DNA of 64,000 bases from IMG/VR virus record IMGVR_UViG_3300023296_001674, one strand, 5' to 3'. Both the position numbers and the translations under genes were made by a program. Of this stretch, positions 3,297-59,674 are shown one piece after another; position 1 is the stretch's first letter; each line of letters begins with the position of its first letter. The DNA is from a virus. The notes below the pieces were generated by a model. That model saw only the letters and a list, made by a program, of their open reading frames with translations. It made no database searches and had not been told where the DNA came from.

Positions 3297-5111
3297 ATGA
3301 TTACAAAAACAAACAAACTGCTAATTTGTAAAGCTGGTGAAGTAGTGACTATTCAGGGTTGGGTTCATAGAACACGCGACCATGGCGGACTTACTTTCAT
3401 CGATTTCCGCGATTATGAAGGATTGGTGCAGTGTGTTTTTGACAATTATGGTGGTACGGTTGATTATCATCATTTGCGGGATGAGTCTGTCGTCCGAATG
3501 ACTGGTGCTGTCAGATTGCGACCAACGGGAACGGAAAATCCTAACTTGCGTACAGGCGACATTGAGATTGAAGTTAGTGAGATAGAAATATTGAACGGCG
3601 CGGATGTGTTGCCATTTAAGGTGTTTGCTGAAGAAGAAGAATATACGCCGTCTTTGGAACAACGATTAAAATATCGTTATTTGGACTTGCGTCGTGATGA
3701 AAATCAAAAAATGTTGAAGTTGCGGTCTGATGTTCAGCATTTTATCAGAAACTACATGCATGATCAAGAATTCATAGAAGTTCAAACGCCTACCTTATCG
3801 TCGACGTCACCAGAAGGAGCAAGAGATTTTTTGATTCCGAGCAGAATACACAAAGGTCAAGTATATTCATTAATTCAATCACCACAAATTCAAAAACAAT
3901 TGCTAATGGCGAGCGGTGTAGAAAAATACTATCAATTATGTCGCTGTTGGCGCGATGAGGCGTCACGTTCTGATCGCGCACTTGAATTTACACAGTTGGA
4001 TTTAGAAATTGGATTTGGCACACAAGAAATGGTGTTTAGTTTAGTTGAACCATTGTTGACAGAGATGTTTGAATCATATGGACTAGGATGGAAGTTGAAT
4101 CAATCACCGAGATATGATGATGGCGATCATGGATTTGTGAGAATACCATATAAAGAATCAATTGAAAAATATGGCACGGATAAACCCGATCTACGGGCGA
4201 GTCTTGAAATGACCGATGTGACTATTTTATTCAAGAAGCAAGGGCCGCAATTCATTGTGGATGCTGTTGAATCAGGACAAATAGTTAAAGCAATACATCT
4301 TACGGATGCAGATGGATTAAGTGGTAAATTCTACAAAGATATTGAAAAATATGCTCAAGAGTTGGGTATGCCGGGATTGGGATATGTCAAATCTGGTTTC
4401 AGTGTAGATAATGGCGGAAACCCCGGACCATTGGCTAAAATGATGAATGCTGGACAATTGACGCAGTTAAGATCAATAGTTGGGTTTAATCCTTTATCTA
4501 GTGACACACAGGCAACCTTCCTTATGGTTGGGCATCCTAAAGCAGTAAACGCATGGGGTGCCGATTTACGGGTTGAGTTATCCAAGCGAACCAAAAACTT
4601 TGATGAAGAATCTTATGAGTTTTGTTGGATTGTAGATTTTCCATTTTTTGAAGAAAATGAAGAAACGGGAAAGATTGATTTCTCGCATAATCCATTTAGT
4701 ATGCCAAAAGGTGGCATGGAAGCATTGGAAAATAAAAATCTGTTGGATATTTTAGCTTGTCAGTATGACACGGTTCTGAACGGAATGGAAATTAACAGTG
4801 GTGGCGAACGAAACTATAATCCAGAAATTATGAAAAAAGTTTTTGAAATAGTCGGATATGATGAATCGGTAGTTGAAGAAAAGTTTCCTTCGTTGTGGGG
4901 GGCGATGAAACTTGGTCATCCCCCTTGCGCTGGTTGTGCACCGGGTATAGACCGATTGATACAATTATTGATGTTTAAAGATGGTGGGCATATAAGAGAT
5001 GTGACGGCATTTCCAATAGGTTCAAATGGGATTGATTTATTAATGGGGGCACCATCTGTGCCATCGGATGAACAAATTAAAGAGTTGGGTATTAAATTTC
5101 AGAAGAAATGA
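3297..5111 (+). CDS. aspS: aspartate--tRNA ligase, bacterial type
   Basis: 604 aa; class II motif 2 WRDEASRSDRALEFTQLD (cf. E. coli FRDEDLRADRQPEFTQID) and motif 3 GCAPGIDRLIQLL; N-terminal OB fold; bacterial insertion domain length. Confidence 0.9.
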   Translation: MITKTNKLLICKAGEVVTIQGWVHRTRDHGGLTFIDFRDYEGLVQCVFDNYGGTVDYHHLRDESVVRMTGAVRLRPTGTENPNLRTGDIEIEVSEIEILNGADVLPFKVFAEEEEYTPSLEQRLKYRYLDLRRDENQKMLKLRSDVQHFIRNYMHDQEFIEVQTPTLSSTSPEGARDFLIPSRIHKGQVYSLIQSPQIQKQLLMASGVEKYYQLCRCWRDEASRSDRALEFTQLDLEIGFGTQEMVFSLVEPLLTEMFESYGLGWKLNQSPRYDDGDHGFVRIPYKESIEKYGTDKPDLRASLEMTDVTILFKKQGPQFIVDAVESGQIVKAIHLTDADGLSGKFYKDIEKYAQELGMPGLGYVKSGFSVDNGGNPGPLAKMMNAGQLTQLRSIVGFNPLSSDTQATFLMVGHPKAVNAWGADLRVELSKRTKNFDEESYEFCWIVDFPFFEENEETGKIDFSHNPFSMPKGGMEALENKNLLDILACQYDTVLNGMEINSGGERNYNPEIMKKVFEIVGYDESVVEEKFPSLWGAMKLGHPPCAGCAPGIDRLIQLLMFKDGGHIRDVTAFPIGSNGIDLLMGAPSVPSDEQIKELGIKFQKK

Positions 5112-6102
5112 TGTCCCATTCTGATTCCCATATTTCAACTAGATTATAACCTGCATTTATTATACGCTGGCGTTTTAGTTGAGTTTCTTCGTGTAAATGA
5201 CCCATCGTTTTATGGTTTACTTTGTTTATGATATCTGGGGTATATTTATTTGGATTGCCGTGCCAATAATCGCCCCAGAATTCATATATTGTATTATCTA
5301 TAAGACCATCAACGCAAATTTTACCAGTTTTTATATTATCATTTAACGATATAACGACTTGCCTATTATTATGATTATTTGGCACCGAGATATGATCTAA
5401 CCAACTATCTTGTTTTTTCCATTTTATCTTACATAGTTTACATCCTCCTGATGATGTATCCAGCAACGATTTAGAAGCCGTAAGGATGGGCTGGTTGTGT
5501 TTTTTGCATACCAAGTTAGTTATAGGATAATGAACGCCTGTATGCGCCGCATTTGCCCAATCTAGGTTATTGTATTGTTCCATTCCAAACACTGATATGT
5601 ATCTATTTTTATATTCTTCTAATGTGATTGATTTAAATAATGATAACGATTCGTTTCCACACTTAAGACATCCACCAGTAGCAGATTTTAATAAATCTTT
5701 TGGGCAAGACATTATAGGTTCATTATGGATTTTACATATTAAATTATCAACGGATGATAACGCCCCGTTATATGATGAATCGCACCAATTTAATTTATCG
5801 TGTTTATATATGCCGAATATTTTTATATATTCATTTCGAAATATAATAAGTGATTTTTTATTGGGATTGCAGTTGGATTTATGTTCAGTTATGCATTGGG
5901 GGCAACCACCATTGCCATTATATATCAAATTGTTGGCATGCTGTGAAACTAATTGATTGTGTATTATACATAGTAAATTGTTTATTGGTTTATGTATACT
6001 AATATATTCAGCATTTGACCAATTTAGATTATCAAATTTGTTTTGACCATGCTTTTTAATATAACGTTCTTTTATTGTGTTTAGGTTTATATTTCTTGAC
6101 AT
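5092..6102 (-). CDS. Vsr/DUF559-type homing endonuclease with three tandem Cys-containing repeats
   Basis: C-terminal EFWGDYWHGNP...RQRIINAGYNLVEIWESEW (DUF559/Vsr-like nuclease fold); three ~100-aa N-terminal repeats each with KHNQPI/KIHNEPI + GGCxxC; 3' end overlaps aspS 3' end convergently by 20 nt. Confidence 0.55.
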   Translation of the reverse strand: MSRNINLNTIKERYIKKHGQNKFDNLNWSNAEYISIHKPINNLLCIIHNQLVSQHANNLIYNGNGGCPQCITEHKSNCNPNKKSLIIFRNEYIKIFGIYKHDKLNWCDSSYNGALSSVDNLICKIHNEPIMSCPKDLLKSATGGCLKCGNESLSLFKSITLEEYKNRYISVFGMEQYNNLDWANAAHTGVHYPITNLVCKKHNQPILTASKSLLDTSSGGCKLCKIKWKKQDSWLDHISVPNNHNNRQVVISLNDNIKTGKICVDGLIDNTIYEFWGDYWHGNPNKYTPDIINKVNHKTMGHLHEETQLKRQRIINAGYNLVEIWESEWDIISSEI

Positions 6103-6228
6103 TATTGCTTCCTTGCTTTACTATATAAATAGTTTTGGGGACACCAGTTACTTCCTTGCAACTGCTGTTTAGATGTCCTACCATCTAAACTTACCCTATA
6201 TCTATTTATCAATAAAATTGGAAATCAA

Positions 6229-6735
6229 ATGCTTAAATTAATGGAACAAATTGAAAACTTCAACGATCCACGTAAAGATGGGTTGTTGAAGTTCCATCAA
6301 GATAATATGGATTTTGTTAATACCGCAAAAGGGTCTTCGCATAACCATCAGGCATGGGAAGGTGGATATAAAGATCATATTGCTGAAACCTTGCGTATTG
6401 CTGATGTCGTTTATGCTGGAATGTCGCAAATACGTGAAATGCCATTTGAACTTGATTCGGGCAAAATTTGTTTATTATTGCACGATATTGAGAAAATATG
6501 GAAATATTCAACGGGTGAAGATATCAATAAACAGTCTTGGTATACTAATATCTTACCAACAGTTTATAAAGTTGAATTGACCGATGATGAAATGAATGCA
6601 TTAGAATATACACATGGCGAAGTTGACGATCACTCTAAAACAGAGAGAAAAATGGGTCGACTAGCAGCATTTGTTCATGCTTGTGATTGTATGTCAGCAA
6701 GATTGTGGCACGATGAAGGTAAAGGATTGGGCTAA
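6229..6735 (+). CDS. HD-domain phosphohydrolase-like protein
   Basis: SHNHQAWEGGYKDHIAE (His) followed by ICLLLHDIEK (HD dyad). Confidence 0.45.
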   Translation: MLKLMEQIENFNDPRKDGLLKFHQDNMDFVNTAKGSSHNHQAWEGGYKDHIAETLRIADVVYAGMSQIREMPFELDSGKICLLLHDIEKIWKYSTGEDINKQSWYTNILPTVYKVELTDDEMNALEYTHGEVDDHSKTERKMGRLAAFVHACDCMSARLWHDEGKGLG

Positions 6736-58676: not shown

Positions 58677-58745
58677 AATATTTTCCTTGACAAATTTGAT
58701 ATTTACTTATATATTATTTATATTTATTGGATTTAGGAGACTGTC

Positions 58746-59378
58746 ATGCAAAAGCAAATCGACTATCAGGAGTTGGCAAACGCCGATGTATCTGCTGGTT
58801 TGTCGCACACCAACGTTCACGATCATTTGAAGCAGAATTCGGTGGAAGTCAATCGTGCATTGACAGTTGATGACAGGGCACCATTTGGTGTTTGTGTGCT
58901 GAATATTACCGGCGAGTTGAATGTGGGCACTGTCGTGCGAACTGCGCACCTTACAGGCGCTTCTAAGGTGGGAATTATTGGTCGCAAAAAGTATGATTCT
59001 AGGGGCGAAGTCGGTTCTTCGAAGTATTTCGACGTTGAGCGTATTTCAGGTCTTAATGATGATGGTTTAACTATCAATCCTGACGTATTTTGGGATTGGA
59101 TTGACACCAATCGATTTAGCCCGATATTTGTTGAGCAAGGTGGTACGTTGTTAAAGGATGTTAATTGGGAGTTACGATGTCGTGATATGCGCATGCTTTC
59201 GCAACGACCATGTTTAGTATTTGGCAACGAGAATCGCGGCATTCAAGATGATATTTTACATGATTCACGTGGAACTATTGTTTCATTAAGCCAATGTGGT
59301 GTTATTCGATCTTATAACGTAGCATCGACGGCGGCAATTGTTATGTATCATTTAACGAGTTATATGGGGTGGTTTTGA
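58746..59378 (+). CDS. SpoU/TrmH-family RNA 2'-O-ribose methyltransferase
   Basis: VGTVVRTAHLTGASKVGIIG and LVFGNENRGIQDDIL (SPOUT motifs). Confidence 0.65.
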   Translation: MQKQIDYQELANADVSAGLSHTNVHDHLKQNSVEVNRALTVDDRAPFGVCVLNITGELNVGTVVRTAHLTGASKVGIIGRKKYDSRGEVGSSKYFDVERISGLNDDGLTINPDVFWDWIDTNRFSPIFVEQGGTLLKDVNWELRCRDMRMLSQRPCLVFGNENRGIQDDILHDSRGTIVSLSQCGVIRSYNVASTAAIVMYHLTSYMGWF

Positions 59379-59674
59379 TGTCTGATTGCCCCATATGTCG
59401 TCGTGAGATGATAGACGGTAAATCAATTGATGAACATCATCTTATACCAAAGGCGTTTAAAGGTAAAGAAACAGTCACGATTCATCGCATTTGCCATTCA
59501 AAATTGCATTCTGTCATAAGCGAGCGTGAAATGCTTAAATATTACCATACGATAGAACGTATATTAGAAAATGAAGAAATTCAAAAATTCATTAAATGGG
59601 TGTCAAAAAAAGACCCTGAATTTTACAGCAGCAACAAAGAAACCGCTAGTCGAAAGAAAAAACGACGTAGATAA
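59369..59674 (+). CDS. HNH endonuclease
   Basis: CPICRREMIDGKSIDEHHLIPKAFKGKETVTIHRICHSKLH; overlaps the SpoU 3' end by 10 nt. Confidence 0.6.
   Translation: MVLMSDCPICRREMIDGKSIDEHHLIPKAFKGKETVTIHRICHSKLHSVISEREMLKYYHTIERILENEEIQKFIKWVSKKDPEFYSSNKETASRKKKRRR

Follow-up and report, generated by a model that had tools for sequence, protein, structure and literature searches.

The window analysed here, a 64,000-nucleotide stretch of viral DNA (IMG/VR record IMGVR_UViG_3300023296_001674), probably carries three unrelated free-standing homing endonuclease genes (HEGs) lodged at the 3' ends of conserved genes, in a translation-gene-rich region of a very large phage-like genome. A putative EDxHD-type Vsr-like enzyme gene would be lodged against aspS, a predicted HNH_3 enzyme gene appears translationally coupled to tyrS, and a candidate gene for a Vsr-fold enzyme of separate lineage stands tail-to-tail with a tRNA-CAU gene. 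The observed basis for this reading comprises nuclease folds and motifs, presence or absence between related genomes, a family-wide position preference, and insertion boundaries; cleavage, target sites and gene conversion are proposed for the three genes by analogy with known systems. A sequence-only reading of the window had named five junctions between nuclease genes and translation or RNA genes. All five are present in the sequence, and the homing endonuclease identity holds for three of them and falls for two.

Comparisons at the level of gene order rest on one relative, reached through homolog searches (ENA ERZ24794642/44/47, contig up to 256,814 bp), in which gene order is kept and proteins are 41–85% identical to those of the window. 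The main features are as follows.

3297–5111, plus strand: aspS, bacterial-type aspartyl-tRNA synthetase, 604 aa (Pfam tRNA-synt_2, E = 1e-92, with OB and GAD domains)
5092–6102, minus strand: free-standing Vsr-like (EDxHD-type) homing endonuclease gene, 336 aa, predicted from motifs and homologs; its last 20 nt lie within the aspS 3' end
40585–40666, plus strand: tRNA-CAU, 82 nt (ARAGORN; Rfam tRNA, 38.2 bits)
40678–40703, plus strand: terminator-like hairpin GGTTGGC…GCCGAC with T-run after the tRNA, read from sequence; overlaps the nuclease stop codon and is conserved in the relative (L021)
40686–41366, minus strand: Vsr-fold nuclease, 226 aa, with two N-terminal CxxC…CSxxC zinc modules (AlphaFold2, Foldseek, homologs)
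41478–42317, minus strand: N6/N4 DNA methyltransferase, upstream of the 226-aa gene on the same strand (Pfam N6_N4_Mtase, E = 4e-41; PADLOC MTase_II)
53425–54675, plus strand: tyrS, bacterial-type tyrosyl-tRNA synthetase, 416 aa (Pfam tRNA-synt_1b, E = 1e-60, with S4 domain)
54672–55016, plus strand: HNH_3 homing-endonuclease gene, 114 aa (Pfam HNH_3, PF13392; PHROG HNH families; PADLOC HEase)

A Vsr-fold nuclease family in tRNA arrays

The AlphaFold2 model of the 226-aa protein, built from a 44-sequence alignment, reaches a predicted local distance difference test (pLDDT) score of 90.5 and adopts a recognised nuclease fold. Its best PDB matches in Foldseek are 1vsr (E. coli Vsr) and 3r3p (the I-Bth0305I catalytic domain), with probability 1.00, and RAP-type mitoribosomal proteins of the same fold are matched as well. 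The family has at least 713 homologs, a few of which are named Vsr by JGI, and its alignment displays two CxxC...CSxxC modules followed by a conserved C-terminal domain (WDADI, WNGPWHY, HSLxQVQNRD, FED). One homolog carries a NUMOD3-type N-terminus; zinc-module and NUMOD3 N-termini are both typical of HEGs. The EDxHD composite motif (E..GD.WH) is lacking in this family, whose consensus AILWNGPWHY holds no Glu or Asp at these positions. The 226-aa protein is probably a free-standing homing endonuclease.

The family is concentrated in tRNA arrays. Among unique IMG/VR loci, de-duplicated by identical sequence only, tRNA genes occur within 3 kb of the family gene at 41 of 45, compared with 3 of 71 for the 336-aa family taken as control (p = 4e-23), and at 26 of the 45 a tRNA lies within 150 nt of the end of the open reading frame (ORF). 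The association favours one anticodon: of 29 CAU tRNAs, 22 are no more than 300 nt away from the gene, compared with 36 of 227 tRNAs with other anticodons (odds ratio 16.7, p = 8e-11), and the first flanking tRNA is a CAU tRNA at 21 of 41 loci. Where the CAU tRNA is the adjacent downstream gene, it is convergent with the nuclease gene in 10 of 13 cases. Across 185,579 species genomes only three loci of the family are found, all of them on contigs of metagenome-assembled genomes (MAGs) and within tRNA arrays; two of the three have an 87–89-nt tRNA-CAU 9–12 nt past the ORF. The Lak-C1 copy sits between tRNA-Gln and tRNA-Leu in a ten-tRNA array and contains in-frame TAG codons, one of which is aligned with a Gln of the window protein; Lak phages recode TAG.

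A search with the 3' end of one long tRNA-CAU recovers nine arrays, four with the nuclease gene and five without it. Near-identical 93–94-nt tRNA-CAU genes are present in arrays with the gene (L239, L245) and in arrays without it (L240, L243), and three further arrays without it (L238, L242, L244) have a more divergent tRNA-CAU of 82–84 nt. Across these seven arrays (L238–L240, L242–L245) homology stops at the last base of the tRNA-CAU, after which either the end of the antisense nuclease ORF or the next tRNA follows. As far as sequence comparison goes, these breakpoints are the footprint expected of a free-standing homing gene. Presence and absence at a defined site is thus seen for the 226-aa gene at the level of the family, while the window's one relative has the gene. 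Tentatively, the 226-aa protein may represent a Vsr-fold lineage distinct from the EDxHD enzymes, almost confined to the tRNA arrays of large phages and inserting 3' of an unusual tRNA-CAU with a long variable arm.

In the window itself, the tRNA-CAU ends 19 nt from the stop of the nuclease ORF, which bears out the earlier description of a Vsr-type gene abutting a CAU tRNA. The Rfam alignment places an 11-nt extra hairpin with a GAAA loop in the variable region of this tRNA, and a promoter-like sequence 5' of it is conserved in the relative. There, a tRNA-like gene lies 20 nt from the nuclease stop between the same promoter-like and terminator sequences, but this gene, which has a 48-nt insertion in the anticodon loop, specifies another tRNA. 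Elsewhere the relative has an ortholog of the 82-nt tRNA-CAU, followed by another nuclease-like gene. The product of the latter (L025, 3466–4197), encoded between the 82-nt tRNA-CAU and a tRNA-Ile, has 243 aa; it shows a zinc finger, PWNKG (NUMOD3-like) and PD..D.K motifs and a weak match to DUF7487, and is probably another tRNA-associated nuclease.

Several tRNA genes in this setting carry short insertions. In the relative, the tRNA-like gene at L021 10701–10823 is longer by 48 nt in the anticodon loop and that at L025 12264–12355 by about 19 nt (anticodon arm); together with the 11 nt of the window tRNA, all are too short for group I introns, and they may be connected with the 226-aa nuclease. 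A recurrent class of phage tRNA-CAU genes, 82–100 nt long with a long variable-arm hairpin, occurs with and without an adjacent nuclease gene; the variable loops of bacterial Met, fMet and Ile2 tRNAs are normally short. Loci of this class are listed below.

IMG/VR: L034, L035, L045, L048, L064, L067, L068, L071, L083, L240, L243
MAG: L169, L170

The simple idea that the long variable arm protects the tRNA gene against the nuclease is rejected because nuclease-less arrays carry the same long tRNA-CAU. A TilS N-domain protein is encoded at 52156–53103 (TIGR02432, E = 1e-47), 11 kb from the tRNA-CAU, and the phage may make its own lysidine-modified tRNA-Ile2.

A Vsr-like nuclease gene against aspS

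The 336-aa ORF overlaps the 3' end of aspS convergently by 20 nt, as the sequence-only reading had it. Its N-terminus is composed of three zinc-knuckle repeats of about 75 aa that resemble DUF723 (pattern ...C..H....Q....L..G.GGC..C), the DUF723 match itself being faint. The C-terminus reads YEFWGDYWHGNP...GYNLVEIWESEW and contains the nuclease motif YEFWGDYWHGNP…IWESEW, which corresponds to the Vsr-like arrangement E..GD.WH…WE.E. Residues E274, G277, H281, K310, W325 and E326 are invariant in four homologs. Sequence searches of PDB, Pfam, NCBIfam and PADLOC with both Vsr-like proteins of the window give no significant match, so that neither ORF reaches threshold in these databases; the label "Vsr/DUF559" first attached to them is nonetheless right in substance, since the 226-aa model matches Vsr and I-Bth0305I and the 336-aa protein shares its motifs with Vsr-like HEGs and has homologs of HEG type.

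In the phage collection, the best homolog lies in LR756504.1 (636 kb), between the N- and C-terminal ORFs of the ribonucleotide reductase (RNR) large subunit. At this locus (L009, 2592–6886) the RNR large subunit is split after a Hint domain that ends the first part, which makes it a fractured-gene locus. Another homolog, annotated as a homing endonuclease, is convergent with TerL in Salmonella phage Sasha. The IMG/VR family counts at least 315 members, and its neighbours were tallied from 71 unique loci (132 neighbours). Flanking ORFs include DNA_pol_B (6), Intein_splicing (5), RNR (3), helicases, DnaB, terminase, Gp23, DHFR and dUTPase; no aminoacyl-tRNA synthetase (aaRS) gene is found among the 132.

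The relative has an AspRS 80% identical to that of the window and lacks the 336-aa gene. Its aspS is followed by a 104-aa gene in the same orientation, a 92-nt tRNA-like gene and then the homolog of the window gene at 6839–7267. DNA homology between the two genomes extends 14 nt beyond the aspS stop, and past that stop the minus strand of the relative can still encode SEWDIISSEI and a stop codon, the last ten codons of the 336-aa nuclease. Both substitutions beyond the stop are synonymous in the nuclease frame, and the stretch looks, very tentatively, like a deletion relic. A different Vsr-like protein is encoded elsewhere in the relative (337 aa, Pfam DUF7487, ...VNGDFWHANP...VVYLWETE); the Vsr-like nucleases thus occupy different sites in the two genomes. 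For the window, aspS is probably the target or the landmark of the adjoining nuclease gene.

An HNH_3 gene coupled to tyrS

The HNH gene described as beginning in the tyrS stop codon is confirmed through an ATGA overlap at 54672–54675. Its product scores 52.5 bits against HNH_3 (E = 3.6e-14), above the Pfam gathering threshold of 24.8. Members of the HNH_3 family occur in 1105 phage records; a single genome often has several of them, and their placement varies. In the relative, the ATGA-coupled pair is kept, with TyrRS and nuclease each 58% identical to their window counterparts, and the pairing is therefore old and stable. The relative's HNH_3 protein has 170 aa, and the 114-aa window copy is without about 56 C-terminal residues; the missing segment is possibly the DNA-binding part.

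Elsewhere, tyrS seldom has such a neighbour. No HEG stands beside tyrS in the cultured jumbo phages GAP32, CBB and fHe-Yen9-04, and among 62 unique IMG/VR tyrS loci about one has a HEG-like flanking ORF (SegE_GIY-YIG/NUMOD3). Because viral tyrS rarely has a HEG neighbour, the pairing is better understood as the settling of HEGs at conserved-gene 3' ends, in the manner of T4 SegB in its tRNA cluster, than as an aaRS cassette. On one metagenomic contig tyrS is followed by two tRNA-Met genes and a GIY-YIG gene; a contig with a 59%-identical tyrS (L011) ends about 60 nt past the gene and gives no information on a downstream nuclease.

Proposed mechanism and alternative explanations

Under the homing reading, during co-infection the enzyme would cut the nuclease-less allele of a related phage in or beside the conserved neighbour gene, by analogy with T4 SegB, SegF and MobE, and repair from the nuclease-carrying genome would then copy the nuclease gene together with flanking sequence. 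Since cutting and repair copy the nuclease gene with its flanks, HEGs would accumulate by sequences that are widely common, such as tRNA and aaRS genes. Read in this way, the notion that auxiliary genes are homing targets stands for the neighbours aspS, tRNA-CAU and tyrS, and is dropped for the SpoU-adjacent ORF and the ligase HNH domain described below. On the proposed check, presence or absence in relatives, the aspS-adjacent nuclease is missing from the relative, the tRNA-adjacent family is present or absent across IMG/VR arrays, and the tyrS–HNH_3 pair is kept in the relative. The sequence-only reading also held that the same endonucleases at unrelated positions would speak against it. This is partly what is found, as relatives of the 336-aa and HNH_3 proteins occupy many unrelated sites and the relative's Vsr-like gene lies elsewhere, and it is expected, since HEGs switch targets.

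Several observations weigh against homing at these loci. The single-sequence AlphaFold model of the 336-aa protein has a pLDDT of 30 and leaves its fold unconfirmed, and profile comparison of the 226-aa family with the 336-aa group (hhalign) gives a probability below 1%. The aspS junction in the relative is not a clean indel, as the different 104-aa gene and the tRNA-like gene occupy the place, and nucleotide identity along aspS, sought as a mark of co-conversion, forms no clean gradient toward the nuclease gene. The window copy of HNH_3, judged by its shortened sequence, may be decaying and perhaps inactive. The tyrS–HNH_3 and methyltransferase–Vsr pairs are conserved rather than polymorphic, which fits domesticated genes too. 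Related contigs inflate the IMG/VR counts given for the tRNA association. The sole relative found is distant (41–85% amino-acid identity), so that presence or absence against it could mean old gain or loss in a variable spot. Moreover, no virion gene lies within the 64-kb window, and the phage status of the genome rests on inference.

A chance neighbourhood, in which a region rich in translation and RNA genes (aspS, tyrS, two tRNAs, S21, TilS, RNA ligase, SpoU) yields such pairs with no targeting, is unlikely. It would suit the facts that 8–10 of about 97 window features are translation or RNA genes, that two of the five pairings first claimed involve proteins that are not HEGs, that HEG-type neighbours are found at about 1 of the 62 unique tyrS loci from viruses, and that the 336-aa family normally adjoins replication and packaging genes rather than aaRS genes. 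It is opposed by the result of shuffling the 97 window features 200,000 times, in which all four nuclease genes touch a translation or RNA gene with P = 4e-4 to 1e-3, and three of three with P = 3e-3 to 7e-3, in a post hoc test whose categories were chosen after the data were seen. The tRNA pairing is, additionally, repeated family-wide in independent genomes, and the tyrS–HNH_3 pair persists in the relative amid heavy gene turnover. It is likewise improbable that the 226-aa protein is not selfish at all and acts as the restriction partner of the adjacent methyltransferase, or as a domesticated tRNA-array factor serving tRNA-gene amplification, as SegB does, or pre-tRNA processing. The two genes adjoin on one strand, and the relative keeps the pair at the same place as the best conserved part of the region (84.5% amino-acid identity for the methyltransferase and 73.5% for the nuclease, against 41–70% for neighbours; 86–90% nucleotide identity in the nuclease half). 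The methyltransferase matches type II models, and the Foldseek matches include RAP-type mitoribosomal proteins; RAP-domain proteins are suspected in pre-tRNA processing. A host-beneficial amplification of tRNA genes by SegB is also on record (PMC13096335). Yet the methyltransferase–nuclease pair is confined to the window and the relative: no methylase homolog stands beside the family gene in 55 IMG/VR loci or in Lak-C1, which makes restriction-modification unlikely as a general explanation, and no PADLOC restriction-enzyme model matches the 226-aa protein. Relative to the tRNAs beside it, the gene frequently runs antisense, as in the convergent CAU cases; otherwise homologous arrays do without it; and zinc-module N-termini, or the NUMOD3-type one of a homolog, are typical of HEGs.

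Very unlikely, finally, is a cassette model, in which attached endonucleases carry aaRS and tRNA genes along as cargo from phage to phage, and which would explain the translation genes of huge phages. The coupled tyrS and HNH_3 genes are equally diverged (58%, 58%), as joint inheritance would have it, although equal divergence fits plain vertical descent as well. DNA identity of the block formed by the tRNA slot, nuclease and methyltransferase is 0.75–0.80, against 0.64–0.70 for tyrS and TilS, and SegB co-transfers flanking tRNA genes (PMC2330249). However, viral tyrS is almost never beside a HEG, and the tyrS genes of cultured jumbo phages have none adjacent; the relative has aspS without the aspS-adjacent nuclease; and the relative's slot holds a different tRNA with the same nuclease. 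The earlier suggestion that auxiliary genes travel as endonuclease-associated cassettes is thus unsupported for aaRS genes, given the rarity of HEG neighbours at tyrS and the replication and packaging neighbours of the 336-aa family, and the wider idea of aaRS genes being carried along by endonucleases fails as well. Three free-standing HEGs at the 3' ends of conserved genes remain the preferred explanation.

Two HNH proteins of other kinds

Two of the five junctions involve HNH proteins that are not classed here as homing endonucleases.

58746–59378, plus strand: SpoU-family RNA 2'-O-methyltransferase, 210 aa (Pfam SpoU_methylase, E = 1.9e-15; weak NCBIfam RlmB, TrmH and TrmL)
59378–59674, plus strand: small stand-alone HNH protein, 98 aa, HlpB-like (CPIC…DEHH…CHSKLH motif; NCBIfam HlpB)
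14179–15204, plus strand: two-domain HNH–RNA ligase (Pfam RNA_ligase, residues 165–316; full-length match to phrog_24030)

The HNH ORF does overlap the SpoU 3' end, as had been noted, but its proposed GTG start at 59369 is less likely than the ATG at 59378 and the homing endonuclease label does not stand. The SpoU stop codon occupies 59376–59378, and the ATG that follows it as TGATG is the gene caller's choice and fits the N-termini of homologs. Against NCBIfam HlpB (NF058586) the 98-aa protein scores 50.8 bits (E = 1.7e-13) over the full length (model positions 8–99 of 99); because this is under the curated cut-off of 130, the protein resembles HlpB and is not an equivalog. Its phage-collection homologs occur in five huge-phage records only, with up to 54% identity, and none is beside SpoU. 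In two huge phages (LR745206.1, L084; LR756502.1, L085) the HlpB-like gene directly follows a tRNA array, and the translations of nearby ORFs, inspected by eye, show motifs like those of TrpRS, HisRS and RNA ligase. The 98-aa protein is conserved in huge phages and probably not a homing endonuclease. HlpB of B. subtilis is a stand-alone HNH protein that binds DNA, shows no detectable cleavage of it and has a role in recombination repair (PMC3765158). The window protein is similar in length (about 100 aa), in having one zinc motif of HNH type and in the full-length profile match; it differs in being encoded by a huge phage-like genome and in its score of 50.8 bits, far below 130.

The HNH fused to a ligase is likewise real as a motif, CxxC…HH…N…HH at the N-terminus of the RNA ligase, and not a homing endonuclease. 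Full-length homologs with 46–55% identity are found in Salicola, Ralstonia, Caulobacter and Acinetobacter jumbo phages and one with 30% in a haloarchaeal virus, and the ligase domain occurs without the HNH in other phages. The sporadic, mobile distribution expected of a homing endonuclease is not seen for the ligase HNH domain. The protein is a stable, conserved fusion enzyme of two domains.

Genome context

The window sequence matches a 570,549-bp contig (ENA ERZ27315719 k141_202852), and the same sequence was assembled from several further runs; we infer that the source genome is that of a huge phage of about 570 kb. Near-identical DNA has no match among 50,697 phage records, so that no cultured phage is close at the DNA level, and IMG/VR scans for close relatives with aspS and tyrS as queries returned nothing useful. 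For several window proteins, phage-collection homologs occur only in huge phages of 440–735 kb and in Lak-C1. Two phage-collection matches to aspS (H4, H7, the two annotated ones inspected) look like mislabelled bacterial DNA and are uninformative because their neighbours are bacterial-type. Inside the window no paralog of any of the nucleases is found, and the four stand-alone nucleases are mutually unrelated.

The majority of window genes have no Pfam family. Annotated genes include AspRS, TyrRS, two tRNAs, ribosomal protein S21, a TilS-like protein, RNA ligase, TelA and a protein with major-vault-protein domains. The S21 gene lies at 13356–13598; S21 genes are reported for other huge phages. 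Between 17800 and 37000 there is a cell-envelope/stress-type gene cluster, unusual for a phage, with TelA, NMT1-like binding proteins, vWA, an OmpA-domain protein, ABC transporter parts, DUF4402, DUF1508, HSP20, a FecR-domain protein and, at 30686–33346, the protein with major-vault-protein Vault_3 and shoulder domains.

The syntenic relative lacks two gene blocks that the window has at 39227–40534 and 46173–52105 (a YqeY-domain protein; a cation efflux protein, a formyltransferase and others), and gene turnover around the conserved nuclease loci is heavy. A short contig (L004, ERZ27315625 k141_43474) carries the window's 196-aa gene (10452–11042) followed by a different downstream gene, an arrangement that implies strain-level variation of the window phage. 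In the relative, an IS605 OrfB/TnpB-type gene (L021, 1–72) adjoins a CTP_transf gene at a position where the window has other genes. The relative also has an amber-suppressor tRNA with anticodon CUA (L021, 12549–12624), of which the 64-kb window has none, and this hints at TAG recoding in the relative.

Relation to known systems and biological meaning

HEGs lodged beside conserved genes and inherited with flanking markers are textbook phage biology, and the kind of system described here is already known; the tRNA-CAU-associated Vsr-fold family is the point of wider interest. For tRNA clusters the direct precedent is T4 SegB. This free-standing homing endonuclease of the GIY-YIG type is encoded among the tRNA genes of T4 and promotes the inheritance of that region (PMC2330249). 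In other phages too, its homologs are associated with tRNA genes, no isotype being preferred, and they can multiply tRNA genes, which allows escape from a defence system (PMC13096335, 2026). HNH genes have been noted in mycobacteriophage tRNA clusters (PMC6409571). Like SegB, the 226-aa gene is free-standing among phage tRNA genes, its tRNA association extends across many phages, and by analogy it would be expected to promote inheritance of itself and of the flanking tRNA genes. Unlike SegB, the enzyme has a Vsr fold with zinc modules and is not of GIY-YIG type, and its family prefers tRNA-CAU.

Vsr-like homing endonucleases were first described in fractured genes and have a conserved Glu at the position of Vsr Phe62 (PMC2677866), which E274 of the 336-aa protein fits. 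In common with I-Bth0305I and the EDxHD enzymes (PMC2677866, PMC3239194), the 336-aa protein would combine an N-terminal DNA-binding region with a C-terminal Vsr-like nuclease; it bears the motif Glu-x2-Gly-Asp-x-Trp-His, and the occurrence of its family is that of EDxHD enzymes, with a homolog between split RNR halves with a Hint domain and with intein, RNR and polymerase neighbours. It departs from them in having three DUF723-like repeats in place of NUMOD2/HTH and in lying outside any intron or intein. The 226-aa protein has the I-Bth0305I structure 3r3p as a top structural match, yet its family lacks the motif Glu and Asp (ILWNGPWH) and has no detectable sequence kinship with the 336-aa group. 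Among the T-even phages, SegF, and Hef by its genomic position, are free-standing HEGs beside conserved genes. The window resembles the T-even cases (MobE, PMC2790892; Hef, PMC3239194) in that nuclease genes stand against conserved genes, are co-transcribed and are variably present among relatives; it differs in that the neighbours are aaRS genes, a class absent among the 132 neighbours of the 336-aa family and not found in literature searches. These searches, of incomplete coverage, returned no description either of a Vsr-fold family tied to tRNA-CAU or of an aaRS–HEG pairing in huge phages.

Free-standing homing endonucleases shape which genes win during phage co-infection, and nucleases colonising the translation-gene region of a genome of about 570 kb bear on how huge phages gain and keep large complements of tRNA and aaRS genes. 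The small HNH (HlpB-like) protein that recurs in translation-gene islands is of possible interest. The 226-aa family is a testable candidate for nuclease-driven tRNA-gene exchange beyond T4 SegB and, being small (about 220 aa) and well modelled, its target specificity is directly examinable. If it is an active homing enzyme, the 226-aa protein would drive the exchange of tRNA genes among jumbo phages with selectivity for isotype, and it could be co-opted as SegB is.

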